Below are positions 3,515 to 32,985 of a DNA stretch of 64,000 bases, one piece after another. Where the stretch lies: positions 359,089 through 423,088 of the forward strand of contig DATKZF010000003.1 of the NCBI GenBank assembly GCA_035528115.1, given 5' to 3'. The DNA comes from Candidatus Bipolaricaulota bacterium. GTDB taxonomy: Bacteria > Patescibacteriota > Patescibacteriia > UBA11705 > DATKZF01. Under the pieces are notes generated by a model. It had not been told where the DNA came from and ran no database searches. It saw only the letters and a program-made list of their open reading frames with translations. The stretch's first letter is position 1, and every line of letters starts with the position of its first letter. The translations under genes and the position numbers were made by a program.

Positions 3515-5827
3515 TTAATTGACAATCGTTTCGAATGTCCACTGCTTGGCATTATTAATGAAAATTTCTTCGTATTTCGATCCCCATTCGAGCTGATAAA
3601 TTTGCGGATAGCTGCCTTTTTGATCCGGCGCGTCAATATAAAACTCGAAAGAATAAGTCTCGCCCGGAGCGACCGCTTTACTGATTTTATTGACCGCGTA
3701 TTTGGAATTCCATGAATAATCGTAAAAATGACTGGTTAACCAACTATTATTCTGGGTGTTTTTATAACTTCTTAATACCAGGTTTTGATTCCAAGAATTA
3801 AGCCCCGTATTTTTGAAAGTCAATTTAACCTTGGTTCGCGAAGAAGCCGCGAGCGATTCGGGAAATGTCGATTCGATCAATTCGGCCGCGTACGGCGTGT
3901 CAATTCTGGTTAACAAATCCACTTCTCCGCCTAATATCGACTCGCTGACCGCTTCATAATCTCCGTCAATCGGTTCGCCGGTCAGTCTGACGAGCTCAAA
4001 CTGCGGCCGAAAAAGTCCGGGACCGCGCGTTTGCAAATCAAAACTCCAAGTGGCGATCTCGCCCGGCTCGATCACATCATCTTCGCCGTCGCCGCTCGCG
4101 TCCCAGGAACCGTTCAAAAAAGCGATGAAGCCATTTTTATTGGTCCATTGATCATGATAAAACGCGTCATTGCCATTGGCTCGATCGGTCACTTTCAATC
4201 TGATCTCCGGAAATGTCCAATTTTTAGTGGAAGTGTTTTTGTATTTCAAAACAATTTGAGGCGTGGTGTCGGAAAAATAAGCGGGCGAAAATTTCTTATC
4301 GACCAATTCCGCGGAATAGTAAGAGTCGGCGTTATAAACGGTCACGCTGGCTCGACCGGCGGCGAAATAACCTTCTTGGCCTTTAACCAAAACCAAATTC
4401 TTTTCTTCTTTTTCTCCGAGCGGCGCGGTGATGGTCGCGTAAAACCTGGAGGTATCCCCCGGTTTGACATTAGGCTTGTCCGACACGATGTAATCGGTTC
4501 TGATGCTGGAATAAACGTCATTATCCTTTTCATCAGCTGTTTCTTCGGACAGCGCCGCGGCCGAAAATTGATTCAGCTTGGCCAATTTTTCCCCTTCTGC
4601 GGATTCGGTCAACCTGACCAAATCTTGTTCTATCGTTGAAAAATTATGCCAAGTCGTATTGCCTTCATTTCGAAATTCGAACCAAACCTGCTTTGTTTGT
4701 CCGTTCTTTAAGGTAATCTGATCATCGCTTTGGTCAAGCAAAGTCGCCTTGTAAACTCTTTTGTTTTTCAATTCATTATATTTGATTTGCGCTTGGGTGC
4801 GAATGATCGGCAATGAAGATTCTATATTCATTCCGGGGCAAGAAGTGCAGTCAACGTCTTTGTGTCCGACAACGGTCGGCAAAAACAGTCCCTCGCGAGT
4901 GCTGTAGCCGCCGGGCGGCAAAGACATATCCAGCCCCAGCTTGGCGATCAAATTGATCAACGACGCTCTGGCCGCGGCGGATAAAGATTGCTCGTTATAA
5001 TCGCCCAAAACAGCGATGCCGATCGTGCCGTGATTAAAGCCGATGACATCGCCGTCTCCGCTGAACACGCTCGAATCGCAAACCGAGCTTCGGAGCGTGT
5101 GCCCGCCTATAGCGCCCTCTCCGCCTTGCCTGCCTTCGAAGATTTCTCCATCCGGAGCGATTAAATAATTATAACCGATATCTCCCCAGCCGAGGCCGTT
5201 GGCCTGCCAGTTGTAAATGCTGCTTACCATCAATTTGTAATCCGCCGAGTTGATGAATTCATCGCCGTTCAAATCCTTTGGCGCCGAACCCGTGTGATGG
5301 AGTATCAAATGATCAATGCCGTAATAATTCACCGGCCAATCCACGTTCGATGACTCCGAAAGCCATTGATTTCTGGGAATTATCTTGAAAGATGGGTCGG
5401 GAACCAATTCCTCGCTCATTGTCGTGGCCGCGGACAACAGCCCGCCCTTAACAAAATCCGAAGTTTGGCTGAAAATTTTCAAACTTTTGACATAACTTTT
5501 ATTTTCAAATTTCAATTCGACTTTATTGCCGGAAGTAAAATGCAAATCGGAGAAAATTTGCTCGTTAATGCTTTCATCTTTGACCGCCATTTCAAAATCT
5601 ACTTTTCGCCAATCGCCATTAACCGCAAACGACAAGCCTGGGTCTTTGTCCGCGTCCAAAATAAAAGCCAGAGAGTCAAACTCCGGCAAATCATATACAC
5701 TTTTGTTTAAATCAACCGCGGTTATCTGAAAATTGGGGCCGGAAGCTTGAGCCGCTTTCACGCCAAAAAAAATCAAAATAAATATTATAACCGCGAAAAA
5801 TTTTTTCATATGGTTTTCCGCTTCCAT
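3515..5827 (-). CDS. secreted N-acetylmuramoyl-L-alanine amidase (Amidase_2/PGRP domain) with long repeat-rich C-terminal region
   Basis: N-terminal signal peptide. The HHTGS...NGLGWGDIGYNYLIAPDGEIFEGRQGG...GGHT block matches the Amidase_2/PGRP zinc-amidase signature. 770 aa. Confidence 0.6.
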   Translation of the reverse strand: MEAENHMKKFFAVIIFILIFFGVKAAQASGPNFQITAVDLNKSVYDLPEFDSLAFILDADKDPGLSFAVNGDWRKVDFEMAVKDESINEQIFSDLHFTSGNKVELKFENKSYVKSLKIFSQTSDFVKGGLLSAATTMSEELVPDPSFKIIPRNQWLSESSNVDWPVNYYGIDHLILHHTGSAPKDLNGDEFINSADYKLMVSSIYNWQANGLGWGDIGYNYLIAPDGEIFEGRQGGEGAIGGHTLRSSVCDSSVFSGDGDVIGFNHGTIGIAVLGDYNEQSLSAAARASLINLIAKLGLDMSLPPGGYSTREGLFLPTVVGHKDVDCTSCPGMNIESSLPIIRTQAQIKYNELKNKRVYKATLLDQSDDQITLKNGQTKQVWFEFRNEGNTTWHNFSTIEQDLVRLTESAEGEKLAKLNQFSAAALSEETADEKDNDVYSSIRTDYIVSDKPNVKPGDTSRFYATITAPLGEKEEKNLVLVKGQEGYFAAGRASVTVYNADSYYSAELVDKKFSPAYFSDTTPQIVLKYKNTSTKNWTFPEIRLKVTDRANGNDAFYHDQWTNKNGFIAFLNGSWDASGDGEDDVIEPGEIATWSFDLQTRGPGLFRPQFELVRLTGEPIDGDYEAVSESILGGEVDLLTRIDTPYAAELIESTFPESLAASSRTKVKLTFKNTGLNSWNQNLVLRSYKNTQNNSWLTSHFYDYSWNSKYAVNKISKAVAPGETYSFEFYIDAPDQKGSYPQIYQLEWGSKYEEIFINNAKQWTFETIVN

Positions 5828-5840
5828 TATACCATATTCA

Positions 5841-5912
5841 TGGCGCGGGCGGGCGCGCCCCGGTAGGAACAGGGCAATGCCCTGTTCCTACATCGGCGGC
5901 AACGCCGCCAGC
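5841..5912. repeat. GC-rich multi-hairpin palindromic element, copy 1 (core palindrome GTAGGAACAGGGCAATGCCCTGTTCCTAC)
   Basis: Perfect inverted repeat at 5863-5891 followed by a second hairpin GGCGGCaacGCCGCC. About 75% GC within an AT-rich genome. Further copies are at 8912-9030 and 14238-14326. Confidence 0.8.
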
Positions 5913-7174
5913 CGCGCCATCAATATCCACCAAAAAACGGCCAAATCATTTTTAAAATACGGCACATCAACCAATCCGTGAATTAAAATCACGGCAAAAA
6001 TCATTAAAATTATAAAATATTCTTCCCTTGTTTCCAATTTCTTTTTCCCGCCTTCCCAATACCCCCAAAACACTTTTCCGATTATCAAAAACCAAGTCGC
6101 CAATCCCAGCAAGCCGATTTCCGACCAAAAATTCAAGAAAATATTGTGCGGATACAAATAAATTTCAATGTAATCTTTTATGTGAAACGGCGCCACGCGA
6201 ATTTGATAACCGGCCAGACCCGCGCCTTCAATCGGCGTTTCCGAAAGCATGTCAATTGTCTCCCCCCACATTTCCATCCTGACTTGCCCTGAAAAATCTC
6301 GCAAAGTCAGTTTTTCCCAAACGATATTTCTTTCAGCGGGCTGGAAAACGAAAAAGCCTGTCAGCAAAACAATCGCTCCTACCAAAAACCATCTGGTTTT
6401 TTTGTTTTTGAAAAAAATTATGGCGGAAACAACGGCCATGGCCGCGATCGCTCCCTCGGACTGCGCAAATACAATGGCGAGAGATGACAACACAATAGTC
6501 ATGACGAAAAAAATTCTTTTCAGCCAGGAATTTTCTTGCCATTTCAAAACCAATTCGCCCAAATTCCAAATGGCAATCGGAGCCAAAAACAAACCGATGG
6601 CATTAGGGTAGCCGAAGATTGAAGTGACTCGCCGAGTTTCCGCGGCTTGCCAAAAAGCATTTGGAATCCAGGCGCCGGTGAATTTTTGATAAATGGCGAA
6701 AAGAGAAATCAAAATCGCGCTGACGGAAAAAGCGAAAAAAAGTTTTTGAAAATCTTTTTTGTTTTTAAAAGTGTTGATTAAAACAATGAACAACAAAATC
6801 GGTTCGATAAAATAAGCTTTCCAAATTCCCAAGGCCGCGATTTTATCCGGCGAGACAATCACGCCGATGGTGGCGGCGAGCAGAAAAAGCATGATTAACC
6901 ATTTGAATCCTCGACCAAGCTTGGCCACGCGCCCACCTTGTCCACTCGCTTTGCTCGTCGCTTTTCGGCCTCTCCTTGAAACAATAAACCTTATCAGCCA
7001 AACCGCGAAAACGATTAATATCATCAATTCCAAAACAGTCATCGGAATCGGCCCGATTTTGAATCTTAAAAGATAAGAGGGCAAACCAAGGGCGATCAAA
7101 ATCAAAGCCCAATCAAGCTTTTTCCAGGCTAAAATGGCAAAAATTACAGTAAAAACACTCGCAAAAATTAGCAT
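5888..7174 (-). CDS. O-antigen ligase / Wzy-like polysaccharide polymerase family membrane protein
   Basis: Around 10-12 TM segments with a large periplasmic loop (Wzy_C-like). The last 10 codons (ARLAALPPM) are encoded inside the GC-rich palindromic repeat, so the true 3' end is uncertain. Confidence 0.5.
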   Translation of the reverse strand: MLIFASVFTVIFAILAWKKLDWALILIALGLPSYLLRFKIGPIPMTVLELMILIVFAVWLIRFIVSRRGRKATSKASGQGGRVAKLGRGFKWLIMLFLLAATIGVIVSPDKIAALGIWKAYFIEPILLFIVLINTFKNKKDFQKLFFAFSVSAILISLFAIYQKFTGAWIPNAFWQAAETRRVTSIFGYPNAIGLFLAPIAIWNLGELVLKWQENSWLKRIFFVMTIVLSSLAIVFAQSEGAIAAMAVVSAIIFFKNKKTRWFLVGAIVLLTGFFVFQPAERNIVWEKLTLRDFSGQVRMEMWGETIDMLSETPIEGAGLAGYQIRVAPFHIKDYIEIYLYPHNIFLNFWSEIGLLGLATWFLIIGKVFWGYWEGGKKKLETREEYFIILMIFAVILIHGLVDVPYFKNDLAVFWWILMARLAALPPM

Positions 7175-7178
7175 ATCG

Positions 7179-7207
7179 TTGACAAAATATTAAATTTGTG
7201 GTAATTT
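7179..7207 (+). promoter_or_regulatory. sigma70-like promoter (TTGACA, 17 nt, TAATTT) for the minigene 7251..7421
   Basis: TTGACA at 7179-7184 and a weak -10 TAATTT at 7202-7207. Confidence 0.35.
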
Positions 7208-7250
7208 CTTAAGTTGCTTCACCCCCAACCCATGCGAGGAGGAGGACAGC

Positions 7251-7421
7251 ATGAACAGCGAAAGACTGGCGGCGATCAAGATGTTCCTCGAGCAGGCACG
7301 TGACCGCAACACGGCCATGCAGGCCCGCCACCCCGAGTGGAAGACACTCCTGAAGGCCAACCTGCCCGAACTGCCCGCCGCCGAGCCCGCCAACAGTGAG
7401 CCCATGCCCGCGGCCGCCTGA
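7251..7421 (+). CDS. hypothetical 56-aa protein encoded by a GC-rich minigene
   Basis: Not in the ORF track (<60 aa). Strong Shine-Dalgarno GAGGAGGAGG lies 6 nt before the ATG. About 65% GC. A weak hairpin plus T-tract follows at about 7462-7490. Translation: MNSERLAAIKMFLEQARDRNTAMQARHPEWKTLLKANLPELPAAEPANSEPMPAAA. Confidence 0.4.
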   Translation: MNSERLAAIKMFLEQARDRNTAMQARHPEWKTLLKANLPELPAAEPANSEPMPAAA

Positions 7422-7525
7422 TCCTCACCTCAACACCAACGCCCCCCCATTTCCCCCCAGCCGAATCGGCCGGGGCTTTTTTATCTCCTTAATTCTAAAG
7501 TCTTCCCCTTCTCCTTAATTCTCTT

Positions 7526-8968
7526 TCATCTCCATCTCTTTAATCTTTCTCCCTTCAACTCCATTCGGGGCATGCCTTCAACCTTAATCTTCACCTCGGC
7601 CATGGCCAATCCAACCACAATCCAAACAAACGGCAAATAAATTATTGAAAACGAATTATATTGAATCAAAATGGCGATAATCACCCAAAAAAAACCTTCC
7701 AGCAAAATTTTCCTCAATTTATCCCCACTCGCTTTCATTGCTTTATACAAATAGAATAACAACAAAACAAAAAAACTCATAATCGCCAAAAACCCCCAAA
7801 TTCCGTTTTCCGCCAAAATTTCCAAATACAAATTATTAACGATTTTCCAATCTTGCCTCGATTCCCAGGCTTTTAGCGGCGCCAAAATACCGAAACTTCC
7901 CGGCCCTGATCCGAGCCATGGATGTTCTTTGAAAATCAGCCAAGCTTCCTTAAACGTTTCTTGCCTTTCCTGAAAAGCCGCGCCTTGAAAGGGATGGGTC
8001 GCGCGGTAAATGAATTGACCCGAAATGCCTGACGGAGCGATGAAATAAATCAATGTTCCGGCCAGACTGATTAAAACCAGCGCGGACACCGCCGCGATTT
8101 TTATTTTTCGAGAAATTTTTGAATAATTGAAAACCGCGAAGAGGATCAAAACGGCCAGCCCGGCCAGAAAAGCGCCTCTGGCGCTGGTCAGAACAAAATT
8201 TATCAGACTTAAAACCAAGGTGACTCGCAAAAACCATTTCATGCGCTCGCTTTTAACTTTATTCAATAAAAACAACGAACAAAAAACAATTGGCAAAAGC
8301 AAAAAATCGGCAAAATAAAGCGGCTCAATGAAAAGGCCTTGAACTCTGGTAAATCCCAAAATACTTTTGGTATATTTTTCAGTTAAAAAAGTCCAATTCG
8401 GGCCAAGCCCGGCCATGTCGGCGATGAATTGATAAAGCCCGAAAACGCAGGTTACTAAACTTGAGACCAAAAAGACTTTGATGGCTGTCGCGACTTCTTT
8501 TATCTTGTGGAAAAACTGTGGAATAAAAATAGATAAGCTTAAAATGAACACTGTGCTGACGAAAACAAACAAACTTCTATTTAAATCCGGACTAAAAAAC
8601 AAACCAAGGCCCATGATAATAAAAAATATGATACTCAATCTTTGCAAAGTATAGATTTTAGAGAATCTTGACCTGTATTCTTCAAATAATATCTTGGCAT
8701 TTTTATTGGCGGCGACTTCAAAAATCTTTTTATAAAACCAAATCAAAATTCCGATCAATAAAAAAACATGCGTCGGCCGGACGGTCGCTCCGAAAACATT
8801 GAATACAAAAACCCTTTCAATCGGCAAACAAAAAATGGCCGCATACAGCCAATATTTGCTGCCGGAAAACGTAATTTTTAATTTTTCAAATATATTTTTC
8901 ACATTTGAAATTTCGCGCGGCAGCGCGCGATCGCGCGCCGTAGGAACAGGGCAATGCCCTGTTCCCAC
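7526..8968 (-). CDS. O-antigen ligase / Wzy-like polysaccharide polymerase family membrane protein (paralog)
   Basis: Polytopic membrane protein with a Wzy_C-like loop. The annotated N-terminus (MGTGHCPVPTARDRALP) is read out of the GC-rich palindromic repeat, so the real start is probably downstream, possibly a non-ATG codon. Confidence 0.5.
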   Translation of the reverse strand: MGTGHCPVPTARDRALPREISNVKNIFEKLKITFSGSKYWLYAAIFCLPIERVFVFNVFGATVRPTHVFLLIGILIWFYKKIFEVAANKNAKILFEEYRSRFSKIYTLQRLSIIFFIIMGLGLFFSPDLNRSLFVFVSTVFILSLSIFIPQFFHKIKEVATAIKVFLVSSLVTCVFGLYQFIADMAGLGPNWTFLTEKYTKSILGFTRVQGLFIEPLYFADFLLLPIVFCSLFLLNKVKSERMKWFLRVTLVLSLINFVLTSARGAFLAGLAVLILFAVFNYSKISRKIKIAAVSALVLISLAGTLIYFIAPSGISGQFIYRATHPFQGAAFQERQETFKEAWLIFKEHPWLGSGPGSFGILAPLKAWESRQDWKIVNNLYLEILAENGIWGFLAIMSFFVLLLFYLYKAMKASGDKLRKILLEGFFWVIIAILIQYNSFSIIYLPFVWIVVGLAMAEVKIKVEGMPRMELKGERLKRWR

Positions 8969-9030
8969 ATCGCCGTTACCGGCGATGGCCGCGCCATTCG
9001 TACAGACGCGCCGCGGCGCGTCTCATAAAA
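8912..9030. repeat. GC-rich multi-hairpin palindromic element, copy 2
   Basis: Core palindrome GTAGGAACAGGGCAATGCCCTGTTCCCAC at 8940-8968. Flanking hairpins are ATCGCCGttacCGGCGAT and GACGCGCCGCGGCGCGTC. Confidence 0.8.
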
Positions 9031-10156
9031 AATTTCGATATCCATCAATCATCTTCTCCATTGAAAAATTCCTCGCCGTCTCCAATCCTGCCGCTTTGAA
9101 CTTTTTCGCCAAATCCGGATTATTATAAAGTTTCAAAATCGCTTGCTTCAAATCTTGCACATTGTCCGTTTCAAACAGCAGACCGTTTTCATTGTTTTTG
9201 ATAATTTCCGGCAATCCGCCAACATTGGCCGCGATGACCGGCACCTTGGCCAACATGGCTTCCAAAATCGCAATGCCGAATGCTTCTTTTTTCGAGGGCA
9301 AAACAAACAAATCGAAATCTTCGAGCCACTCGTAAACATTTTCCTGAAAACCAAACAGGACGACACTGTCTTTTATTTTCAATATATCGATCAAGCCTTC
9401 CAAATCCTGCCTGCTCGGCCCTTCGCCGATAATGGTCAAATGAATATCGGGAATTTCCGTTTTCAATTCGCCAATCGCTTTAATCAACAGCCCCAAATTT
9501 TTTTCATGACTCAATCTGCTGATCGAGCACACATTAAAATGCTTTTTTTCAAAGTCCGAATAATTCTTATCAGCCAAATTTTGATAAATGTCTTCCTGAA
9601 AAAACTTTTTCGACAAATCAATACCGTTGTAAATCACCTTGACGTTCTTGACCTTTATTTTTTCCAATTCTTTTTTCACGAATTCTGACACGCAAACGAC
9701 CGTTGCCAGACGCGACCACCATTGATATAAAAATCTGTACGGGTTTTTGGTCAGCCAGCGCTCGATGGACACGTGCTCTTGCCAAATAACCTTATAGCCG
9801 AGCAGTTTGGCCATTGGCGTGATCAAAATTTTCTCGGTCAAAGACAAGCAAAACAAGATTTTGGTTTTATGTTTGATTCTATAATAAACAATAATGGCCA
9901 GCAGGCTTAAAAACGAATAAATGGCGAGGATCGGAAACAAAAAAAGCGCCCAAATCGCCACCGGCTCCACGCCGACCCACCAATATTTTTGCGGCCAATT
10001 TCTTTTTTCGAATTCGGCCGTTAAAACTTTATCCGAGGACATTAAAAAAAAATTGAAATCTTCCTTTTTCAATCTTTCCACCAATTCCAGCGTATACTTT
10101 TCCCCTCCGCCGAATTGGGATTGGTAGGGAAATTTGAGGATTAATATGTTCGACAT
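9023..10156 (-). CDS. glycosyltransferase family 4 (GT-B fold) with N-terminal membrane anchor
   Basis: EAFGIAILEAMLAKVPVIAANVGGLPEII matches the GT4 E-X7-E region. Confidence 0.7.
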   Translation of the reverse strand: MSNILILKFPYQSQFGGGEKYTLELVERLKKEDFNFFLMSSDKVLTAEFEKRNWPQKYWWVGVEPVAIWALFLFPILAIYSFLSLLAIIVYYRIKHKTKILFCLSLTEKILITPMAKLLGYKVIWQEHVSIERWLTKNPYRFLYQWWSRLATVVCVSEFVKKELEKIKVKNVKVIYNGIDLSKKFFQEDIYQNLADKNYSDFEKKHFNVCSISRLSHEKNLGLLIKAIGELKTEIPDIHLTIIGEGPSRQDLEGLIDILKIKDSVVLFGFQENVYEWLEDFDLFVLPSKKEAFGIAILEAMLAKVPVIAANVGGLPEIIKNNENGLLFETDNVQDLKQAILKLYNNPDLAKKFKAAGLETARNFSMEKMIDGYRNFL

Positions 10157-10170
10157 ATTATTTATTTAGC

Positions 10171-10415
10171 TAAGATTTCTCCACTTCACTCGTCGTCGCT
10201 ATGCTCGACTCACTCCGGTCGAAATGACAAAGAGGGATGATATCTTTTTTTTGTCACCTCGAGCGAATCCGAGAGCTCTTTTCCTAATTGACCGTCGTTG
10301 TCATCTCGACCGAAGTCGTCCGAAGCTTTGGCGAAGGATGACGAAGCGGAGAGCTCTTTTCCTAATTAACCATCGTTGTCATCTCGACTGAAATGGAGAG
10401 ATCTTTTCCAAAACC
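10171..10415. mobile_element. MITE-like element E1 with terminal inverted repeats (AAGATTTCTCC ... GGAGAGATCTT) and an internal roughly 48-bp tandem duplication
   Basis: The ends are reverse-complementary. The unit GAGAGCTCTTTTCCTAATTGACCGTCGTTGTCATCTCGACCGAAG repeats about 2.5 times. Related copies are at 10721-10845, 12757-12888 and 13177-13245. Confidence 0.6.
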
Positions 10416-10422
10416 GGCCAGC

Positions 10423-10719
10423 TTAAATGCTTTGGGACAAATCATCCCAATCCGGATTCATTTCCTCAATCAGCCGGATTTTCTTTTCCCTTCTCCATTT
10501 CTTCAATTGCTTTTCCCGCTCAATCGCTTCATTAATATCATTGAAATTTTCAAAATACACCAGTCTGGTGCAATTGTATTTTTTTGTAAAACCTTCAATT
10601 ATTTTATCTTGGTGTTCAGCCACTCTTCTGACCAAATCGTTCGTTACTCCAACGTATAACGTTCTTTTATAGCTTGCCATTATATAAACATGGTAATTGT
10701 TTTCAAACATATGCATCAT
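10423..10719 (-). CDS. GIY-YIG nuclease superfamily protein (YhbQ/UPF0213-like small nuclease)
   Basis: YVYIMASYKRTLYVGVTNDLVRRVAEH matches the GIY...YIG motif. 98 aa. Bracketed on both sides by the MITE-like inverted-repeat elements. Confidence 0.7.
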   Translation of the reverse strand: MMHMFENNYHVYIMASYKRTLYVGVTNDLVRRVAEHQDKIIEGFTKKYNCTRLVYFENFNDINEAIEREKQLKKWRREKKIRLIEEMNPDWDDLSQSI

Positions 10720-10720
10720 T

Positions 10721-10845
10721 TGGAAAAGATTTCTCCACTCCGCTCGTCTTCGCTACGCTCGACTCACTCCGGTCGAAATGACAACGGATGATGTCTTTTC
10801 TTTTGTCATCTCGACCGAAGCGGAGAGATCTTTTCCTAGAAACCC
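10721..10845. mobile_element. MITE-like element E2 (TTGGAAAAGATTTCTCC ... GCGGAGAGATCTTTTCCTA)
   Basis: Terminal inverted repeats about 19 bp. Internal sequence GGTCGAAATGACAA...GTCATCTCGACCGAAG is shared with E1, E3 and E4. Confidence 0.6.
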
Positions 10846-10851
10846 GTATCC

Positions 10852-11280
10852 TCACAATTTCATCTCCGCAATCAACCGCATCAAACTCTCATCAGAAACT
10901 TTATAATCCCCTGTTAAAAATTCCTGCTTGGTCACCCAGCGAAATTCCCTGATATCATCAACCCCGGGATTTTTAGTAATATCAATATTAGTGGAGGTCG
11001 GAATGCAAAGAAAGGTTGAGCAGACCACTTGTCCGCCATCAATTTCCTTGAAAAACCACCAGATGCCGAGCGGCTCTTTGATTTCAACATCAAGAAATAC
11101 TTCCTCTTTAACCTCTCTTCTCAACGCGTCAAAAGGAGACTCCCCGAAATCCACTTTGCCGCCCGGCAAATCCCAAAAATATAAATCATCATTAATGTGC
11201 GCTTTGACTATTAAAAATTTATTGTCTTTTTTTATAAACGCTTTGACACCGGCGATTACCGGTAATGTCTGTTTAGCCAT
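10852..11280 (-). CDS. NUDIX hydrolase
   Basis: Nudix box GGKVDFGESPFDALRREVKEEVFLDV (GX5EX7REUXEEXGU). Confidence 0.75.
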   Translation of the reverse strand: MAKQTLPVIAGVKAFIKKDNKFLIVKAHINDDLYFWDLPGGKVDFGESPFDALRREVKEEVFLDVEIKEPLGIWWFFKEIDGGQVVCSTFLCIPTSTNIDITKNPGVDDIREFRWVTKQEFLTGDYKVSDESLMRLIAEMKL

Positions 11281-11295
11281 ATATTTAATTTTGTT

Positions 11296-12717
11296 TCATG
11301 ACTTCAACGAAACCATCTCCTTCACCGTCTCCTTTTTAATCACCCCAAACACCGCCAACAAAGAAAAATAAACGGCCATGCCGATTAAAATCAGCCAGAT
11401 GACGTTAAGGTCGCGCAAGAAATAAATGACCCCGGCCATAATGCCGGCCGCGACCAAGGATTTGCCGAAATTGACCAGGGACGGAAAAAATTTGACTGCC
11501 CGATAAACCACAATGCCGGTCAAAATCATGATCATGACTTCGGACGCCACGGTGAACGCCGCGGCCGCCCAGTATCCGTATTGCGGAATGAAAACGAAAT
11601 AGCCGATCAAGGCCACGATGGCCGTGGCCAAATAGCCCCAGATCATTTGCTTTTGCTTGTTGACGCCGACAACCGCGTAACCGAACAGCGTGCCGAAAAA
11701 AATGGCGCCGGCCGCGAAAATCAATATTTTTAAAATATCGCCCGAACCCGCGAAATCCGAACCGGCAATCAATGTCATGACTTTTTCTCCAATGACCAAA
11801 CCGCCCAAAACAACGGGCAAGGCCATCATGGCCATGGCGTCAAAAGATATTTGAAGCAAATGCTTGACCCCGTCCAGTTTTTTTTCAATCCAGTCTTTGG
11901 CCAGCAGCGGCAAAATAAGTCCCATGAATAAAGCGGGCAACATGGTTAAAATATCAATCACGCGGTACGCCGCGCCGTACAAGCCCACATCCGCGTTCGG
12001 CCAGTACAAAGACAGGATAACCGTGTCCGTTTTCAAATACAAAAGATTGCAGGAAATGGAAATCGCGATCGGCCAACTCTTCTTCAAAATCCCCAGCCAA
12101 ACATCTTTATCAAAAGTGAATTTTATTTTCACGTATTTTCTCGAAGCCAGATACGAAATCAAAAGGTGCGTGAAGCTGCCCAGCGAGATCATCCAAAAAA
12201 TCAAATAAATATTCGCCTGAAAATACATGGCTGTCGCAATGCCCGCCAACAAAACGATCCTGCCAATAACCTCGGCGATGCTGTAAATGAACATTTTCAA
12301 TTCTTTTTGAAAAACGCTGGCCAAAATATTATTTATCGAAATGAAAAAGAAGGAAAAAACCACAATGGCCACGCCCAGCTTGATTTCCATGGCATACGGG
12401 AAAAACAAAACGACGATCGGCGCCAGAGATAAAAAAATAAACGCGGAAATAACGCGCAAAGTCAGCATGTTGCTCAAGTACTTATCAATATTTATCCCCG
12501 GGTTGCCCACAGTTCTGGTCGCGGTGAGTGACAACCCGAAATCCACGATTATGCCGAAAAACGACAGGAACGCGACTACGGTGATATATTGACCGAAGCC
12601 CTCCGGTCCCAAATACCTGGTCATCAAAGCAACCACAAAAATACCCAGGATCGTGGTGGCGATCTTGCCGATGAATTGAACGATGGTGTTTCTGGCCAAC
12701 TGTTTTGTTAATGACAT
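11296..12717 (-). CDS. polysaccharide biosynthesis protein / Wzx-like flippase (MOP superfamily)
   Basis: 473 aa with about 12-14 TM helices. The overall pattern matches the Polysacc_synt/MATE-like family. Confidence 0.55.
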   Translation of the reverse strand: MSLTKQLARNTIVQFIGKIATTILGIFVVALMTRYLGPEGFGQYITVVAFLSFFGIIVDFGLSLTATRTVGNPGINIDKYLSNMLTLRVISAFIFLSLAPIVVLFFPYAMEIKLGVAIVVFSFFFISINNILASVFQKELKMFIYSIAEVIGRIVLLAGIATAMYFQANIYLIFWMISLGSFTHLLISYLASRKYVKIKFTFDKDVWLGILKKSWPIAISISCNLLYLKTDTVILSLYWPNADVGLYGAAYRVIDILTMLPALFMGLILPLLAKDWIEKKLDGVKHLLQISFDAMAMMALPVVLGGLVIGEKVMTLIAGSDFAGSGDILKILIFAAGAIFFGTLFGYAVVGVNKQKQMIWGYLATAIVALIGYFVFIPQYGYWAAAAFTVASEVMIMILTGIVVYRAVKFFPSLVNFGKSLVAAGIMAGVIYFLRDLNVIWLILIGMAVYFSLLAVFGVIKKETVKEMVSLKS

Positions 12718-12756
12718 ATAAATTTTGAAATAAGGAATCTATGAAAAGCAATAAGA

Positions 12757-12888
12757 AGCGTCTGCAAAAAAGACCGTCATCTCGACCCCTCGACTGTGCT
12801 CGGGCAGGCCGAAGCGGAGAGATCTTTTCCTAACTGCCCGTCGTTGTCATCTCGACCGAAGCGGAGAGATCTTTTCCTAACAAAATAT
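12757..12888. mobile_element. MITE-like element E3 (two tandem copies of GTCATCTCGACCGAAGCGGAGAGATCTTTTCCTAAC)
   Basis: Same family as 10171-10415. The first unit is interrupted by a 22-nt insertion. Confidence 0.6.
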
Positions 12889-13176
12889 TTAAATACTCTG
12901 TGATAAATCATCCCAACACCCATTCATTGATTCAATCAATTGAATCTTCTTTTCTCTTCTCCACTTTTTTAATTGCTTTTCCCTATCAATAGCTTCATTT
13001 ATATCATTGAAAAGTTCATAATACACAAGACTGGCGCAATTATACTTTTTCGTAAAACCTTCAAAAACTTTATCCTTGTGCTCACTGACTCTTCTCTTCA
13101 AATCATTTGTTACCCCAACATATAATGTTCTTTTAAAACTTGCCATTATATAAACATAATAATCATTTTCAAACAT
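12889..13176 (-). CDS. GIY-YIG nuclease superfamily protein (paralog of 10423..10719)
   Basis: YVYIMASFKRTLYVGVTNDLKRRVSEH. About 75% identical to the first copy. Bracketed by GCGGAGAAATCTTTTCCAA upstream and TTAGGAAAAGATCTCTCCGC downstream. Confidence 0.7.
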   Translation of the reverse strand: MFENDYYVYIMASFKRTLYVGVTNDLKRRVSEHKDKVFEGFTKKYNCASLVYYELFNDINEAIDREKQLKKWRREKKIQLIESMNGCWDDLSQSI

Positions 13177-13245
13177 ATTCTTATTTGGAAAAGATTTCTC
13201 CGCTCCTCCTCACAAGCTCGTCGTCGGTCGAAATGACATGAATAA
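13177..13245. mobile_element. MITE-like element E4 (truncated left half)
   Basis: TTGGAAAAGATTTCTCCGCTCC...GGTCGAAATGACA matches the left arm of E2 and then diverges. Confidence 0.5.
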
Positions 13246-13247
13246 AT

Positions 13248-13508
13248 TTATTTCAACGGGTCATTACCCCCTTTCGACCACGGATTGCACCTCATTATCC
13301 GCCAGACGCCTTTGGTGCCGCCGCGAATAAGACCGTATTTTTCAATGGCTTGATAAGTGTATTCGGAACACGTGGGATGGAACTTGCAAAAACCTTGAGG
13401 GAAAAGGTCTTTCAGCCAGCCGTGGTCGAATGAAAAAACGCGTTGATAAAATTTTATCAATTTCAAAACGAGAAATTTGGGAATATTAACAATGAATGAA
13501 AAAATCAT
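13248..13508 (-). CDS. yidD: membrane protein insertion efficiency factor YidD
   Basis: HPTCSEYTYQAIEKYGL...RCNPWSKGGNDP matches the YidD/DUF37 signature. Sits in the conserved rpmH-rnpA-yidD context. Confidence 0.8.
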   Translation of the reverse strand: MIFSFIVNIPKFLVLKLIKFYQRVFSFDHGWLKDLFPQGFCKFHPTCSEYTYQAIEKYGLIRGGTKGVWRIMRCNPWSKGGNDPLK

Positions 13509-13867
13509 TTGACGATCAATCTTAATTTTCTAAAAATCTGGTCAACATCTCTTTCGAGTCGAGCGAAATCCGCGTCCGCAATGCCTTTTTGAGCGATGAT
13601 CAAAACATCATATCCCCCGGAGATCCGAGGCAGCCGCGCTCTGACGATTTCCCGCAACCGCCTTTTGATCAAATTGCGTTTGGTGGCGCGCTTATCGACT
13701 TTGGTGGAAATCACAAAAGCGAATCGGCTTATTTCGCTCCGGTTTTTTAGACTTTTAATAATAAGGTCGGGCGTGGAATTGGAATATCCTCCCGATTTTC
13801 TAAATTTCGGCCCGAAAAACTTGTCGAAATCTTTTTTTTGGGTTATGCGATGAAGTCTTTTAAGCAT
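13505..13867 (-). CDS. rnpA: ribonuclease P protein component
   Basis: Basic 120-aa protein (KRNLIKRRLREIVR...) with a 4-nt overlap onto yidD. Conserved position downstream of rpmH. Confidence 0.8.
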   Translation of the reverse strand: MLKRLHRITQKKDFDKFFGPKFRKSGGYSNSTPDLIIKSLKNRSEISRFAFVISTKVDKRATKRNLIKRRLREIVRARLPRISGGYDVLIIAQKGIADADFARLERDVDQIFRKLRLIVK

Positions 13868-14037
13868 ATTGAATAGGGGGCTAAAGAAGTCTTAAGAGGG
13901 CGGGTCGAGGTGAAGGGACAAGCGCGGGAGAAGGCAGACAAATTTTATTCGGGGTAGGCGGAAATTCGGATCACAACGCTCTCCCCTTAATATTAGCTTA
14001 TATATTGGAAAAAGAAAAAGGCCACGCGACCGTGACC

Positions 14038-14175
14038 TTAAGCTGATAATTTTTTTCTGCCTCTCTGGCGTCGAGTTTTCAAGATCGCTTGTCCGCTTTT
14101 ATCGCTCATTCTTTTTCTAAAGCCATGCTTTTTGCTCCTTTTTCTGGCAGTCGGCTGATATGTTCTTTTGGGCAT
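14038..14175 (-). CDS. rpmH: 50S ribosomal protein L34
   Basis: Not in the ORF track (45 aa). Reverse-strand translation: [45 protein letters not shown]. Followed on the minus strand by the hairpin GGTCACGGTCGCGTGGCC plus a T-tract at about 14008-14036. Confidence 0.85.
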
Positions 14176-14237
14176 ATTTAAAAGTTACTTTAATAATAAA
14201 ATTATTCTAACAAAGGAACGTCGTTTTGTCAACTGAC

Positions 14238-14326
14238 GCGGCCGCGGCCGGCGCGCAATCGCGCGCGTAGGAACAGGGCATTACCCTGTTCCTACATCGG
14301 CGACACATTCGTCGCCGCCGGCCGCT
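14238..14326. repeat. GC-rich multi-hairpin palindromic element, copy 3 (inside the rpmH-dnaA intergenic/origin region)
   Basis: Core palindrome GTAGGAACAGGGCATTACCCTGTTCCTAC at 14268-14296. Second hairpin GGCGACacattcGTCGCC shows compensatory changes relative to copies 1 and 2. Confidence 0.8.
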
Positions 14327-14329
14327 GAT

Positions 14330-14529
14330 TTGCATAATCCCAAAAATTCTATACAATGAATTTATATTATTCACACCTAATGCACAGCTTGCCAACTTTA
14401 TCCGCCTTGCGACAAATATTATCCACAGAAAAATTGTGTTATAATACGAACACAAAAAAATTCCCATATTTCCACTTGTTTTTACCTCTTTAAAATAAAA
14501 ATAAAGAAAAATTAATCCCCATTTTTCCT
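14330..14529. promoter_or_regulatory. oriC part 1 / dnaA promoter region with DnaA boxes
   Basis: Perfect DnaA box TTATCCACA at 14419-14427. One-mismatch box TTATTCACA at 14367-14375 and TTTATCCGC at 14397-14405. AT-rich. Confidence 0.55.
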
Positions 14530-15924
14530 ATGACTCAAGAAAATGAACAACTCTGGCAAACAGTGCTGGGGGAATTGGAGCTCAATTTGAGCAAGGCCAG
14601 CTTCACCACCTGGTTCAAGAACACCTTTATTCTCGACAACGAGGATGGCAGGATCATTATCGGCGTGCCCAACACTTTTTCTCAGGCATGGCTGAAACAG
14701 AAATATCATAATGATATTTTTAAGACATTGCAGAATCTGACAGGGAAAAGAATCAAAGACGTCAATTATAAAGTTCAGAATAAAAAAGACTTCAGACCCA
14801 CGGAAAAAATTCCGGTTCCCGTGGTCGAAGGGGTCGTTCGCGAAGAACTCATTTCCTCTCAGCCGACCACGCCTCTTCTCGAACAAAATAGCGGCGCGTA
14901 TCAAAACATTAACCGCAATTACGCTTTTGTCAGTTTTATAGTTGGTAAAAACAATGAATTGGCGCACGCCGCGGCCAAGGCCGTGGCCGAAAATCCGGGA
15001 TTCACTTATAATCCCCTTTTTATTTACGGCGGGGTCGGACTGGGAAAAACCCATCTGCTTCAATCCATTGGCAATGAAATCCTCATTAAAAACAGCCAAA
15101 AAAAGATTTTATACGTCACTTGCGAACAATTCACCAATGATTTTATCAATGGTATTTCTTCGGGCAATTCCGGTAAATTCCAATCTTATTATCGCGGTCC
15201 GGACGTGCTTTTAATAGACGACATTCAATTTTTAACCGGCAAAGAAGGCACGCAAGAAGCTTTCTTTCATACGTTCAATGATCTGCATCAACGAAACAAG
15301 CAAATAGTTATCACTTCGGATCGGCCGCCGAAAGCCATTGCCACTCTCGAGGACAGGCTTCTTTCAAGGTTTGAGTGGGGCATGATTGCCGATATTTCCC
15401 AGCCGGACATGGAAACGAGAATGGCTATTTTGGAGAAAAAATGCCTTGAAAAAAACTTTAATCTGAATAGGGACATTGTTCAATACATCACCCAAAACAT
15501 TCAAAACAACGTTCGGGAACTCGAAGGAGCTCTCAATAAGATTATCGCTTATCATCAATTGAATAAAATAGAACCGACGCTGGAAAACATTAAAAAAATA
15601 CTATTCTCTTTAAGCAATGCCGGCGGACAAAAAAACTCAGTCACTCCGCGGCACTTGATTGAAACCGTGGGTAAATTTTACGAAATAGGCCTTGAGGACA
15701 TTACAGGCAAGTGCAGACAAAAACGATTGGCCTTTCCCAGACAAATAATAATGTATTTGATGAGAGAAGAACTCAGGGAGTCTTATCCTTCAATCGGCCA
15801 AGAATTGGGAGGCAGGGATCATACCACGGCCATGCACGCGCACAGTAAAATTTTAAACTTGCTCGAAACGGATGAAAAGCTCAGACAAGAAATAAACCTG
15901 CTCAAACAACTGCTGTATCAATAA
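14530..15924 (+). CDS. dnaA: chromosomal replication initiator protein DnaA
   Basis: Walker A GGVGLGKTHLL, the LLIDDIQFL sensor, and the C-terminal DNA-binding helix DHTTAMHAHSKI. Confidence 0.95.
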   Translation: MTQENEQLWQTVLGELELNLSKASFTTWFKNTFILDNEDGRIIIGVPNTFSQAWLKQKYHNDIFKTLQNLTGKRIKDVNYKVQNKKDFRPTEKIPVPVVEGVVREELISSQPTTPLLEQNSGAYQNINRNYAFVSFIVGKNNELAHAAAKAVAENPGFTYNPLFIYGGVGLGKTHLLQSIGNEILIKNSQKKILYVTCEQFTNDFINGISSGNSGKFQSYYRGPDVLLIDDIQFLTGKEGTQEAFFHTFNDLHQRNKQIVITSDRPPKAIATLEDRLLSRFEWGMIADISQPDMETRMAILEKKCLEKNFNLNRDIVQYITQNIQNNVRELEGALNKIIAYHQLNKIEPTLENIKKILFSLSNAGGQKNSVTPRHLIETVGKFYEIGLEDITGKCRQKRLAFPRQIIMYLMREELRESYPSIGQELGGRDHTTAMHAHSKILNLLETDEKLRQEINLLKQLLYQ

Positions 15925-30578: not shown

Positions 30579-30840
30579 TTAAAATTTGGTTGGATGTCCA
30601 TATTTGATCAAATTTTCTTTTTTAATTTTGCTCCAACGTTTTATTTGGTTTTCTCGCTGCATAGCTTCTCTTAATGTATTATATTCTTCAAAGTAAATGA
30701 TTTTTACAGGTCTTCTATATTTTGTATATTTTGCGCCTTTGCCTTCATTGTGTCTTTTTTCTCTTGCTTGAATGTTTAAGCGAGATCCGGTATATAGGGA
30801 GTTATCATTACATCGCGCTATATACATGAAGTGCTTCATT
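30579..30840 (-). CDS. GIY-YIG nuclease superfamily protein (third paralog)
   Basis: MKHFMYIARCNDNSLYTGSRLNIQAREKRHNEG...REAMQRENQIKRW. ORF 30579..31082 trimmed to the ATG at 30838-30840. The upstream part is GC-rich repeat sequence, not coding. Confidence 0.6.
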
Positions 30841-31157
30841 GGGATAAGTAAAATTTTTTTAAGTGCCCCTCGACTTCGCTCGGGACATTCGACTCGTCTG
30901 GTGGTGGAACACCATGAGCGAGTCCGAGATTTCGAGGACGAGTCGAATGGTGGAGCCGAGTAGAGGAAGTTAGAACTTTTTTCGTCGCCGGAGCGCGCAA
31001 TACTGCCGATCCTGGCCGGGTACCTGCAGAGTACCACGACCGCACTGCTCGAGGATGTGCGAGAATATGACCTCGAGCACATGGCGAGAGTTCAGCATCC
31101 GAAGCAGCTCTGTCCAAACTCCTTGCCAGTTCGTAATTGGCCACGACGCAGTATGTA

Positions 31158-31186
31158 TTGACAGCAGATCCTATTAGTGCTAGGAT
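31158..31186 (+). promoter_or_regulatory. sigma70-like promoter (TTGACA, 17 nt, TAGGAT) inside the island
   Basis: TTGACA at 31158-31163. The -10 is imperfect. Confidence 0.3.
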
Positions 31187-31262
31187 ACCATATCCAGCCG
31201 CATCTTTCCCTCCCTTGCGTGCCCACCGAATTCCGGCAGGCAGACATCAGAGGGGAAGGGGG

Positions 31263-31514
31263 ATGGCTATGGGTCTTGCAAAGCATTTGCTACTCTGCGT
31301 AACGCTATTCCTAGCGTTTATGGCATTTTGGTATCTAACGATGGAAGGGTGGGCTAACGGCCAAGAAGGAGTCCAGTCGTGTGGTGGTGGATGCGGACGA
31401 ATTCTGTTTCTTCTGGAGGTCCTCTTGGCACAGACAGGCTCACTTTTGACGATGTGCATACTGCACTGGAGTGGACTGCCTCGTGGCAAGAGGCGAGATT
31501 CTCAGCAGTCCTAG
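31263..31514 (+). CDS. hypothetical small membrane protein (island cargo)
   Basis: SD GAAGGGGGA before the ATG. One or two hydrophobic helices and a CGGGCG motif. Trimmed from ORF 31137..31514. Confidence 0.3.
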   Translation: MAMGLAKHLLLCVTLFLAFMAFWYLTMEGWANGQEGVQSCGGGCGRILFLLEVLLAQTGSLLTMCILHWSGLPRGKRRDSQQS

Positions 31515-31856
31515 TTCCGAAGTTGTTCTGGCGGAACCGATCATCCGTGTTCCGCCTTTTTGTTTTCCCGCAAGAAACTCATGCGGCTTGATGCAATAGA
31601 TGACTCTCGGGTCATCGAACAGATGGGTCGGAAACGCCATTCCGACCCATTTCCATTGAACAGCGCTCATCGACAGCGAAGAAGACCGTCAATTCTTGCG
31701 CCGTCGTAGCCCTGCACGTAGTCGGACCCAATCACAGCGAACGGCAAACTGAGGTTGTCGGACCCGAGGATCCTTGATAGTCGTCGCGCCGACTCAGGAT
31801 CGCGCTCCACGTCGCGGCGACGATAGAATTGGAGCACGGTTGCCCTTCGTCCGCAA

Positions 31857-32360
31857 CTACGCGGAAATGTCTGCCAATTCCAATGACATGCTCGCCGCAA
31901 GATCGCCTGGACTGAATCTCATGCCACAGTACTCATCGCCACCGGCTCCGGTGACCAGCGCTCTCCGAAGAACGTTCCTATCAATGATCCTCCGATCACA
32001 AGACGATACAGCCACCGGCGGGACTCCACCAATACGAAACTGGGTCACCGACTCGATCTGCTGGGGCGTGGCGAATCGAAGTTTCTTGACGCCGACCAGT
32101 TCCGCGACCCTGCGAACGTCCAGTCGGTCAGATCCTAGTATTATGCAAGCGATGAATACATCCTCCCTTGGAGCATGCAAGACGAGTGTCTTGATGATGT
32201 TTTCCGATGCGGTTTCGAGGGCGGCAGAGGCCTGCGAGGTCGTCTTTCCAGACTGCTCGTGCATCATGAACTGGGCCCTCAGACCTACGCAACTTGCCAG
32301 TCTCTTCGCGCGGTCGATGGCTCCGGTGTCCAACTGGCGCTCCTTTCCAATCAGGTTGGC
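31857..32360 (-). CDS. YbaK/ProX-like aminoacyl-tRNA deacylase domain protein (island cargo)
   Basis: IKTLVLHAP...RLDVRRVAELVGVKKLRFATPQQIESVTQFRIGGVPPVA parallels the YbaK KTLV...GGVSP pattern. The 5' end is uncertain: no in-frame ATG at the expected position, so a GTG/TTG start is possible. The ORF-track entry extends to 32642. Confidence 0.45.
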   Translation of the reverse strand, partial: ANLIGKERQLDTGAIDRAKRLASCVGLRAQFMMHEQSGKTTSQASAALETASENIIKTLVLHAPREDVFIACIILGSDRLDVRRVAELVGVKKLRFATPQQIESVTQFRIGGVPPVAVSSCDRRIIDRNVLRRALVTGAGGDEYCGMRFSPGDLAASMSLELADISA

Positions 32361-32934
32361 GTGACAGACTTTGGGCGCACGTCTGAACGGTGGTAGGGGC
32401 GTGACGGACGGGGAGGTCGTGCTTGCACCCACAGCGGCACCCTCGAGGAACGAGGTCAGCGATTGGCCTGTGCCATGCCTCACCTGGCGTTGGGAACATG
32501 TCCGGCCGTCCGTTTCCGCGGGCACGCGGTGTACTCCTCTGCTGGTGTTGTTCATACTACATGCTTGGCCGCCGGTCGTCTTGGCCGCCGGCATTTGTGT
32601 TTCACTCATGCTAATTGTACGGAGATTGCGCATGCTTGTCAACCAGGCATCTCACTGAATTCCTCAAGCCGGCCTGCGTGGGTTCAGCGCAAACGGGGCC
32701 GTTGACAGCCTTCCAGTTCGCTGCTACGAAGACCACAGAGATCTCTGCGCCCGTGCAAAATGGATGGCCCGGTAGCTGCAGGATCGAACTGACGCCCGTC
32801 TTCACGACCTCTCGGGTCTTCCGTTCGCAACGGCCTCGCTCGGTCGCACCGGCCACGCGGAGCGAATGAGACAAGGTCGCAACCATCGCGACGGCATAAG
32901 TGTAGAATATATATACTACGTGAAGATAGATGTT

Positions 32935-32980
32935 AGAGCGAGAGAGATAGACACCTAGGAATGTCTATCTCTCTCGCTCT
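32935..32980. repeat. perfect 19-bp-arm palindrome AGAGCGAGAGAGATAGACA-cctaggaa-TGTCTATCTCTCTCGCTCT
   Basis: Arms at 32935-32953 and 32962-32980 are exact reverse complements. The 8-nt spacer contains CCTAGG. It lies about 350 bp upstream of the serine recombinase gene. Confidence 0.85.
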
Positions 32981-32985
32981 CTATC

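Follow-up and report, generated by a model that had tools for sequence, protein, structure and literature searches.

The 64,000-nucleotide stretch of DNA analysed here (64 kb in all, referred to as the window) carries a polysaccharide gene cluster on its minus strand, followed by rpmH and, on the plus strand, dnaA. Three copies of a 29-nt palindrome, GTAGGAACAGGGCAnTGCCCTGTTCCTAC, lie in this region at 5863-5891, 8940-8968 and 14267-14295 (copies A, B and C). The first forms the end of a Wzy gene, the second lies between a second Wzy gene and a glycosyltransferase gene, and the third sits in the spacer between rpmH and dnaA; none occurs elsewhere in the window. A previous interpretation of this DNA, which we call the sequence-only reading, had reported three copies with a near-identical core palindrome, and this is confirmed at these sites. 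We think it very probable that A, B and C are copies of a small non-autonomous palindromic repeat of the repetitive extragenic palindromic (REP) class, of the type known as double-foot GTAG.

The core is distinctive in the window. The 12-mer GTAGGAACAGGG is found on both strands, with 0 or 1 mismatch, at 5863-5891, 8940-8968 and 14267-14295, and beyond these three sites a scan allowing up to 2 mismatches returns just two unrelated 2-mismatch matches. The observed core count (8 matches) is reached by 0 out of 100 dinucleotide shuffles. Written as a search string the core motif is GTRGGAACAGGG, and the copies depart from one another in two places: the 3′ foot of B is CCCAC, and the loop of C is CATTA. 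All three copies lie within 8.5 kb, with zero in the remaining 55 kb. Their sequence is identical in independent ENA and Logan assemblies, and thus they are not an assembly artefact.

Quentin et al. (2018; PMC6006769) describe a "double foot" REP as one with a 5′ GT[AG]G and a 3′ C[TC]AC. We observe both feet in all three copies. GTAG opens every core on the plus strand, and the 3′ foot is CTAC in A and C and CCAC in B, so that read on the minus strand the foot is GTAG in A and C and GTGG in B. The core stem has 12-14 bp, a loop of 1-5 nt and a GC content of about 57%, which is within the limits of the detection rules in that paper (stem of 7-20 nt, short loop, at least 50% GC). Their rule for short hairpins, that 3 of the first 4 basal stem bases be G or C, does not hold if the stem is counted after the foot (GAAC).

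How widespread is this core? We scanned GTDB, with one genome per species, specifying only GGAACAGGGN5CCCTGTTCC, and obtained 112 loci. The positions left free read GTA...TAC, with a loop CAnTG, in the low-GC loci only, and where a phylum-level name is given these are Patescibacteria, Parcubacteria, Falkowbacteria or Moranbacteria, the exceptions being one locus labelled Gammaproteobacteria and two labelled just "bacterium". Because the free positions match in the low-GC loci, the full 29-mer is common to many Patescibacteria; in high-GC or gut taxa the flanking bases vary, and the hairpins there are therefore taken to be unrelated. A scan of JGI metagenomes added 57 further loci. The core scan of IMG/VR gave 0 matches, and nothing thus hints at an origin in phages. 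Once duplicates are removed, 77 distinct copies have one foot or both, and 54 of these have both.

Some of these copies lie in frame inside protein genes, where they read VGTG[QH]CPVPT, a peptide that is the same in either orientation. We find them in fmt (a methionyl-tRNA formyltransferase-like gene; loci L015 and L045) and in a recG-like gene (L023). The fmt copies of L015 and L045 are at the same position (as also in L125 and L166), in the context ..KKLS(S/A)NKN-VGTGQ(Y/C)PVPT-EEIK.., and that position is shared either by inheritance or because it is a preferred target. For 11 copies out of 57, the palindrome runs on into the flanks for at least 5 bp (5-28 bp), often in the order A-run, stem, core, stem, T-run, so that the core looks like the tip of a bidirectional terminator-like hairpin. 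Among these extended copies (L059, L090, L092, L095, L098, L107 and others), several share the arm TTGTTAT(C/T)C and make up a longer sub-family. Three Parcubacteria metagenome-assembled genomes (MAGs; L017, L080 and L081) hold a sub-family of the palindrome in which the two feet differ in a symmetric way, with GCAGG...CCTGC vs. GTAGG...CCTAC.

The copies in other genomes are linked to genes that resemble those of RAYTs, the tyrosine transposases associated with REPs. A RAYT-like Y1/HUH open reading frame (ORF) contains or abuts 17 of the 77 distinct copies, and 3 more have one within 1.5 kb; such ORFs together cover about 1% of the fetched DNA. Copies within RAYT-like ORFs are mostly placed after the HUH motif (..MPNHIHGII..), read VGTG[QH]CPVPT, and often come with partial tandem repeats. 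The host ORFs score above the Pfam cut-off for Y1_Tnp, among NCBIfam families REP_Tyr_transpos fits them best (47-75 bits), and the JGI annotation of several members is "REP element-mobilizing transposase RayT". The sole meaningful PDB match of the host proteins is the E. coli TnpA_REP 4ER8, with the HUH, WQPRF...R and Y motifs aligned (IWQPRFYDRIIRN...YIIDNP vs. IWQPRFWEHAIRN...YIYINP). Residues W94, Q95 and R104 (4ER8 numbering) are conserved in the RAYT-like proteins, which are 42-76% identical to one another. There are also RAYT-like homologs with peptides from other double-foot palindromes (CRNEALPRSY and CRDKALPCLY), and these sequences suggest that REP and enzyme may vary together. The arrangement of REPs in or beside the TnpA_REP gene has been described for subclass 2.4 (PMC6006769). 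The Patescibacteria proteins carry D100/R101, residues that Quentin et al. associate with subclasses 2.5 and 2.7, and thus a placing in subclass 2.4 would be tentative.

In the window, each core is set in a unit of 77-82 nt with 69-77% GC, in a genome with about 43% GC. The layout of the unit is a 7-bp closing stem that encloses an upstream GC-only hairpin, the core, and a downstream hairpin. The sequence-only reading described a multi-hairpin structure of which it saw two stems, the core and a second hairpin. Both are present, the second hairpins being the downstream ones given below; each copy in fact has four stems. The parts of the three composites are these:

5842..5918: composite A, with closing stem, GC hairpin, REP core and GC hairpin, between the Wzy gene (5888-7174, minus strand) and the amidase gene (3515-5827, minus strand)
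5842..5848: A, closing stem 5′ arm GGCGCGG, paired with 5912-5918
5851..5860: A, upstream GC-only palindrome GGGCGCGCCC
5863..5891: A, double-foot REP core GTAGGAACAGGGCAATGCCCTGTTCCTAC; on the minus strand the TAG of the foot, 5888-5890, is the stop of the Wzy gene 5888-7174
5895..5909: A, downstream hairpin GGCGGC-aac-GCCGCC
5912..5918: A, closing stem 3′ arm CCGCGCC
8915..8994: composite B, intergenic, between the stop of the GT4 gene (9023) and the probable start of the Wzy gene (GTG 8902), both on the minus strand
8915..8921: B, closing stem 5′ arm GCGCGGC, paired with 8988-8994
8923..8938: B, upstream hairpin GCGCGC-gatc-GCGCGC
8940..8968: B, REP core whose 3′ foot varies to CCCAC (read as GTGG on the minus strand) and whose GTG serves as a false start for the mechanical ORF 7526-8968
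8969..8986: B, downstream hairpin ATCGCCG-ttac-CGGCGAT
8988..8994: B, closing stem 3′ arm GCCGCGC
9004..9023: a further hairpin rich in GC, AGACGCGC-cgcg-GCGCGTCT, abutting the TGA stop of the GT4 gene, of uncertain membership in element B
14244..14325: composite C, between the rpmH promoter (-35 box TTGACA at 14232-14227, minus strand) and the dnaA promoter (-35 box at 14329, plus strand)
14244..14250: C, closing stem 5′ arm GCGGCCG, paired with 14319-14325; other registers could form, as a second GCGGCC lies just upstream
14251..14266: C, upstream hairpin GCGCGC-aatc-GCGCGC, with 15 of 17 bases the same as in the hairpin region of B
14267..14295: C, REP core that differs in its loop (GGGCATTACCC)
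14298..14317: C, downstream hairpin CGGCGAC-acattc-GTCGCCG
14319..14325: C, closing stem 3′ arm CGGCCGC

With DNA parameters, the minimum-energy fold is a four-way junction in all three copies. With RNA parameters, it is a four-way junction for B and C on both strands. All of the predicted pairs (91 out of 91) are Watson-Crick, with zero G.T or G.U pairs, and the fold energies run from -59 to -80 kcal/mol (z of -6 to -9), equal for both strands. Each element has a single symmetric palindrome, and a GT[AG]G foot is lacking from the side hairpins.

Is the structure of the flanks under selection? Folded alone, the six flanks are equalled or bettered by 74, 61, 98, 5, 17 and 15 out of 200 dinucleotide shuffles. 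When the core is kept fixed and both flanks are dinucleotide-shuffled, chance does as well in 3/1000 cases for B and 2/1000 for C, and in 320/1000 for A. Near-pure G/C flanks fold readily whatever their order. Homology between flanks exceeds that of shuffles for the left flanks of B and C (13/1000), for the right flanks of A and B (7/1000), and for the right flanks of A and C (10/1000); the remaining three flank pairs have none above shuffles, which makes the similarity a mosaic, and this mosaic homology implies a duplicated unit larger than the core.

The sequence-only reading took the changes between copies as compensatory and as showing selection on structure. A MAFFT alignment of the three copies gives inconsistent columns for the closing stem and the downstream hairpin, and the pairs were counted by hand. 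We count only two double-sided changes, both in the downstream hairpin: G-C to A-T (A vs. C), and C-G to G-C (B vs. C). With three copies, G/C-rich flanks and shifted registers, this evidence for compensatory change is at most suggestive, and the claim is not supported. Palindromes can also stay perfect by DNA-level templated repair (quasi-palindrome correction).

Several observations weigh against regarding A, B and C as REP copies moved by a RAYT. The closing stem and the side hairpins are not family-wide, since a perfect hairpin of at least 6 bp is present in 8 of 106 flanks elsewhere, and their origin is unexplained by REP biology. There is no RAYT gene in the window, where tblastn with the RAYT-like proteins matches only the 10 residues coded by the REP; a cognate enzyme in this genome is therefore putative. 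The REP_Tyr_transpos scores are below the 80-bit equivalog cut-off (the best is 75). Searching with an exact pattern inflates the apparent conservation of the stem across genomes, by an ascertainment effect. Just 3 copies are visible, all inside 8.5 kb, and there is no strain polymorphism among the assemblies with an identical DnaA (all are 100% identical), so that there is no sign of recent mobility.

The rarity of the wrapping elsewhere has an exception, a GC-rich closed multi-hairpin composite with nested core copies at 3664-3846 of a sister MAG (L008). The core followed by ACATCG, a motif specific to the composites, has 0 matches in the JGI metagenome collection and none among the GTDB matches listed. 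We regard the multi-hairpin wrapping as lineage-specific, belonging to the source genome and its sister genome.

The genes around the composites, all of them intact where they neighbour an element, are:

3515-5827, minus strand: amidase
5888-7174, minus strand: Wzy
7526 to about 8902, minus strand: Wzy
9023-10156, minus strand: GT4 glycosyltransferase
11296-12717, minus strand: flippase-like
between the flippase-like gene and dnaA in the listed gene order: yidD, rnpA
14530-15924, plus strand: dnaA
16189-17319, plus strand: dnaN

Copies A and B lie between unidirectional genes, near the 3′ end of the upstream gene. Copy A encodes the final 9 or so codons (..MARLAALPPM) and the TAG stop of the Wzy gene 5888-7174, whose ortholog in the sister genome has a different, longer tail. 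Copy B is another matter. The mechanical ORF 7526-8968 begins at the GTG of the REP foot and reads VGTGHCPVPT, and its ortholog aligns from about residue 24, which places the likely Wzy start at GTG 8902 and leaves copy B intergenic. Thus, of the two copies said to have been drawn into the ends of Wzy ORFs, A is a real case and B is an artefact of ORF calling. Gene callers make the same choice (e.g., ENA locus L174), starting the Wzy gene 7526-8968 (minus strand) inside the REP core with 22 spurious residues (VGTGHCPVPTARDRALPREISN).

The stretch of 8.5 kb that holds the REP copies also includes two of three free-standing ORFs with a GIY-YIG nuclease domain (95-167 aa; 10423-10719, 12889-13176 and 30579-31082, all on the minus strand), and the relatives L170 and L172 also have some near dnaA. 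Farther along the window, 31000-35150 is an island of 55-62% GC in this genome of about 43% GC. In it, a large serine recombinase ORF (33287-34954, plus strand; Resolvase, Recombinase and Zn_ribbon_recom domains) overlaps with its 3′ end a tRNA-Ala (34889-34965, minus strand), beside tRNA-Lys and tRNA-Arg, and there is a perfect 19-nt inverted repeat at 32935-32953/32962-32980. The island looks like a foreign element integrated at a tRNA cluster.

Copy C is flanked by two promoters. The rpmH promoter is TTGACA-17-TAGAAT (11 of 12 matches; minus strand, 14232-14204), and the dnaA promoter is at 14329-14357 on the plus strand; lying between these divergent promoters, copy C is transcribed by neither. 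The cumulative GC-skew minimum is at 16-17 kb, 1.7-2.7 kb away from C. Two DnaA boxes are found to the right of C, one perfect (14419) and one near-perfect (14367), about 40-100 nt downstream, and the box scan finds none inside C. Elsewhere in the window there are two perfect DnaA boxes (TTATCCACA), inverted and 20 nt apart, at 45214-45250, far from dnaA, and a further perfect box at 33270-33278, inside the high-GC island.

The spacer that holds copy C can be compared in relatives. The DnaA of the window is identical to a MAG protein labelled Candidatus Bipolaricaulota by NCBI. Its close relatives are all Patescibacteria, Parcubacteria or Falkowbacteria, and the gene content fits these groups; the NCBI label is probably a taxonomic mislabel. 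The synteny yidD-rnpA-rpmH / dnaA-dnaN is kept in relatives with DnaA 82%, 78% and 77% identical, and a block upstream of dnaA, TTGCA..TATACAAT..TTATCCACA, is conserved in those three. Copy C lies outside this conserved block of promoter and DnaA boxes. The spacers of the three relatives (L172, L173 and L170) have no core half-site and no GC-rich element, which makes copy C a lineage-specific insertion. This orthologous comparison reaches copy C alone, the Wzy region of the sister genome (copies A and B) being arranged differently. The sister MAG L170 has at 9640-9700, where the window has copy C, a different insert of about 220 nt with short repeats, among them a GTAG followed by the palindrome AATCCGGATT, plus ATCCGGGG repeats. 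The insert may represent a second REP-like type that has settled in the same permissive place.

A terminator scan of both strands makes no terminator-like call at A, B or C, and there is no T-tract after the hairpins. Rfam over the window gives nothing at gathering score. At E ≤ 1 over 5700-14450 there are two matches at chance level (E about 0.9); the one to STnc560 (20 vs. 55 bits) covers some of the left side of element B, and the second is outside the elements.

Other explanations of the three elements have to be weighed against these data. One is that mobility and selection act on the whole composite of closing stem and three hairpins and not on the 29-nt core alone, that an HUH enzyme needs the single-stranded DNA folded as a four-way junction, and that the differences between copies are true compensatory evolution. 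It would account for the same four-way junction in all three copies under DNA parameters, for flanks of B and C that exceed shuffles in structure with the core fixed, for flank homology that makes the duplicated unit exceed the core, and for the common orientation of the copies on the same side of the GC-skew minimum; the composite of the sister MAG L008 and the two double-sided changes in the downstream hairpin also fit. But the flanks of A are no better than shuffles, flanks taken alone are mostly not significant, copies of the core followed by ACATCG are absent from the JGI metagenomes and the listed GTDB matches, and three copies have no statistical power. Moreover, the core is found elsewhere without side hairpins, also inside RAYT-like genes, which indicates that the enzyme family does not need them. 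We consider this explanation unlikely. If it were true, the composites would be the chromosomal counterpart of the hairpins with several palindromes on which HUH nucleases act at the origins of viruses. A different proposal is that of an RNA element, a small-RNA or cis-regulatory family, or an mRNA 3′-end stabiliser or terminator, selected at the RNA level. Copies A and B are just downstream of minus-strand genes and would be co-transcribed, the folds are very stable, the core variants in the foot of B and the loop of C are compatible with G.T pairs on the minus strand while giving A.C mismatches on the plus strand, and REPs in other bacteria are reported as RNA elements by Di Nocera et al. 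(2013; PMC3733652). Nevertheless, the elements have no Rfam match at gathering score, or at E ≤ 1 beyond chance level, none is terminator-like or has a T-tract, C is transcribed from neither of the divergent -35 boxes around it, the 91 pairs include no G.U and both strands fold equally, and the same core is found in frame inside coding sequences elsewhere. The small-RNA family suggested by the sequence-only reading is thus not borne out, and we hold an RNA element to be quite improbable.

Copy C might instead be the functional one, as part of the replication origin or of dnaA autoregulation, with the other copies secondary. The rpmH-dnaA spacer, the distance from the skew minimum and the nearby DnaA boxes invite such an idea, and to say that one copy lies in the origin region is correct as to the position between rpmH and dnaA; it holds only loosely given the 1.7-2.7 kb to the skew minimum and the absence of the element from the spacer of three relatives. 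That absence, with the promoter/DnaA-box block conserved, together with the lack of a DnaA box within C and the presence of the same unit twice in a polysaccharide gene cluster 5-8 kb away, makes an origin function for C very improbable. As for chance GC-rich palindromes, an assembly artefact, or decayed insertion sequence (IS) or transposase fragments, it is true that sequence made of G and C only readily forms hairpins. Yet three near-identical 29-mers vs. 0 in 100 shuffles, identity in independent ENA and Logan assemblies, and intact neighbouring genes leave hardly any room for such explanations. Nor is there a flanking transposase remnant in the window, since tblastn matches only the 10 REP-coded residues, so the elements do not appear as fragments of a larger IS or transposon. 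In sum, the REP-like reading of the core is correct, and the evidence for RNA, for an origin function, and for selection on structure is weak or negative.

The mechanism that we propose for A, B and C as double-foot REP copies follows what is described for known systems. RAYT/TnpA_REP proteins, a group of Y1 HUH tyrosine transposases with one domain, work on single-stranded DNA, and REP hairpins are what they recognise and cleave (PMC6006769). By analogy, the hairpin would form in single-stranded DNA, and the enzyme would read the foot, with the strand being cleaved and then rejoined. With feet at both ends, the hairpin is the same on either DNA strand. The copies could have been spread in trans by a RAYT that works on single-stranded DNA, for instance at the replication fork, with no target-site duplication. 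All three composites have the same orientation and are on the same side of the GC-skew minimum, which with n = 3 is weakly consistent with mobilisation at the replication fork. Landed copies would be neutral passengers or modest modulators. At the 3′ ends of minus-strand genes, the stable hairpins of A and B could keep 3′ exonucleases off the upstream mRNA or provide a stop codon, and C could be a cruciform-prone spacer that absorbs supercoiling between divergent promoters; the shielding of mRNA and the cruciform are speculation. The GC wrapping may be palindromic DNA that has been accreted or co-mobilised, and whose pairs would stay perfectly Watson-Crick through processes at the DNA level rather than through selection for an RNA fold.

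A number of known classes were considered for these elements, and most of them were rejected. They are not REPINs, having a single symmetric palindrome each (a double foot could be a collapsed dimer; PMC6006769). Bacterial interspersed mosaic elements (BIMEs) have alternating REP subtypes and conserved linkers, and here there is one REP per element with flanks that are only mosaically similar. The earlier label of REP/BIME-like is right for the core, by its GT[AG]G foot and the link to RAYT-like genes in related genomes. For a miniature inverted-repeat transposable element, the closing stems could serve as 7-bp terminal inverted repeats, no direct repeat is visible at the junctions, and the empty sites in relatives are too diverged to place the junctions. 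A module of oriC and DnaA boxes is rejected because C has no DnaA box and is absent in relatives where the adjacent box block is conserved, an intrinsic terminator because there is no terminator-like call on either strand, and an Rfam structured RNA family because no covariance model matches. The copies are not in a regularly spaced array, as clustered regularly interspaced short palindromic repeats (CRISPR) would be, ARAGORN and Rfam find no tRNA at the elements that would support a tRNA-like cloverleaf, and the occurrence of the same core inside coding sequences in many genomes speaks against a transcription-factor operator.

What does this add to what is known? Most descriptions of REP/RAYT systems concern Proteobacteria, Cyanobacteria and Bacteroidetes (PMC6006769), and in the searchable literature we find no publication that links RAYT or REP elements to Patescibacteria. 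The same double-foot REP in many ultrasmall Patescibacteria extends the range to strongly streamlined genomes. On a reading that we consider unlikely, a near-invariant 29-nt REP shared by RAYT-like genes only 42-76% identical would mean that RAYT and REP are partners under unusual constraint in such genomes, perhaps to the benefit of the host. There is also a value for annotation, since the element creates false ORF starts and ends and inserts the 10 residues VGTG[QH]CPVPT. Current understanding is not overturned, and the GC multi-hairpin wrapping is a small curiosity; should it be widespread in the source genome, it could reveal the way in which palindromic DNA builds up around REPs.

The E. 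coli BIMEs and Pseudomonas REPINs are like the composites in being composite, highly structured units between genes with REP hairpins at their centre, and a RAYT present in single copy is believed to mobilise them. BIMEs differ in having alternating REP types and defined linkers, in place of one symmetric REP with non-REP GC hairpins. The inverted terminal repeat of the parvovirus AAV (adeno-associated virus) is an outer stem that encloses small palindromes in single-stranded DNA, and it is processed by the HUH protein Rep. The outer stem and internal palindromes are shared with the composites by analogy only; the viral structure is a three-way T-shape at a viral replication origin, the one here is four-way and belongs to a chromosomal repeat, and there is no sequence relation. 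Rickettsia palindromic elements (RPEs) are longer, about 100-150 bp. They too are palindromic repeats that survive in frame in protein genes, as cited in PMC3733652. The same paper identifies the intragenic CGTC repeats of R. conorii as RPE-4 and RPE-6 and links no transposase to CGTC repeats, in contrast with the RAYT-linked family described here.

Closer are the REPs of the GTAG superfamily, described by Di Nocera et al. (PMC3733652). There, GTAG feet supply TAG stops; REPs are mainly between unidirectional or convergent genes, with intragenic ones in replication and repair genes; those at apparent N-termini are probably not coding; the GTAG-23 REPs of T. roseum are inside small GC palindromes, CCGSSCC(n3-4)GGSSCGG; and REP arrays flank polysaccharide genes, as in Thauera. 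The window copies and their relatives share the GTAG foot, the donation of a TAG stop, the location near a 3′ end between unidirectional genes, in-frame intragenic copies that include one in a DNA-repair gene, the enclosure by GC-rich inverted repeats, and the flanking of polysaccharide genes. On the other hand, the classical tag in that account is unpaired and at one end, while here it forms pairs with its complement; the visible copies here number only 3, with two side hairpins that result in a four-way junction.

Another close comparison is with the double-foot REPs of TnpA_REP subclass 2.4, which have the same feet on a long perfect hairpin, and whose W94, Q95 and R104 are conserved in the Patescibacteria proteins. 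The differences are that subclass 2.4 is named mainly in Cyanobacteria and Bacteroidetes, and tnpA_Y1 genes are found preferentially in large genomes (PMC6006769), whereas here we have Patescibacteria with genomes of about 1 Mb; that the Patescibacteria proteins have the D100/R101 of subclasses 2.5 and 2.7; and that the copies in the window have extra GC-rich hairpins, and no RAYT gene beside them in the window. What is new is that a phylum that has been little studied carries a member of the known double-foot GTAG REPs, wrapped in several hairpins that are specific to the lineage.

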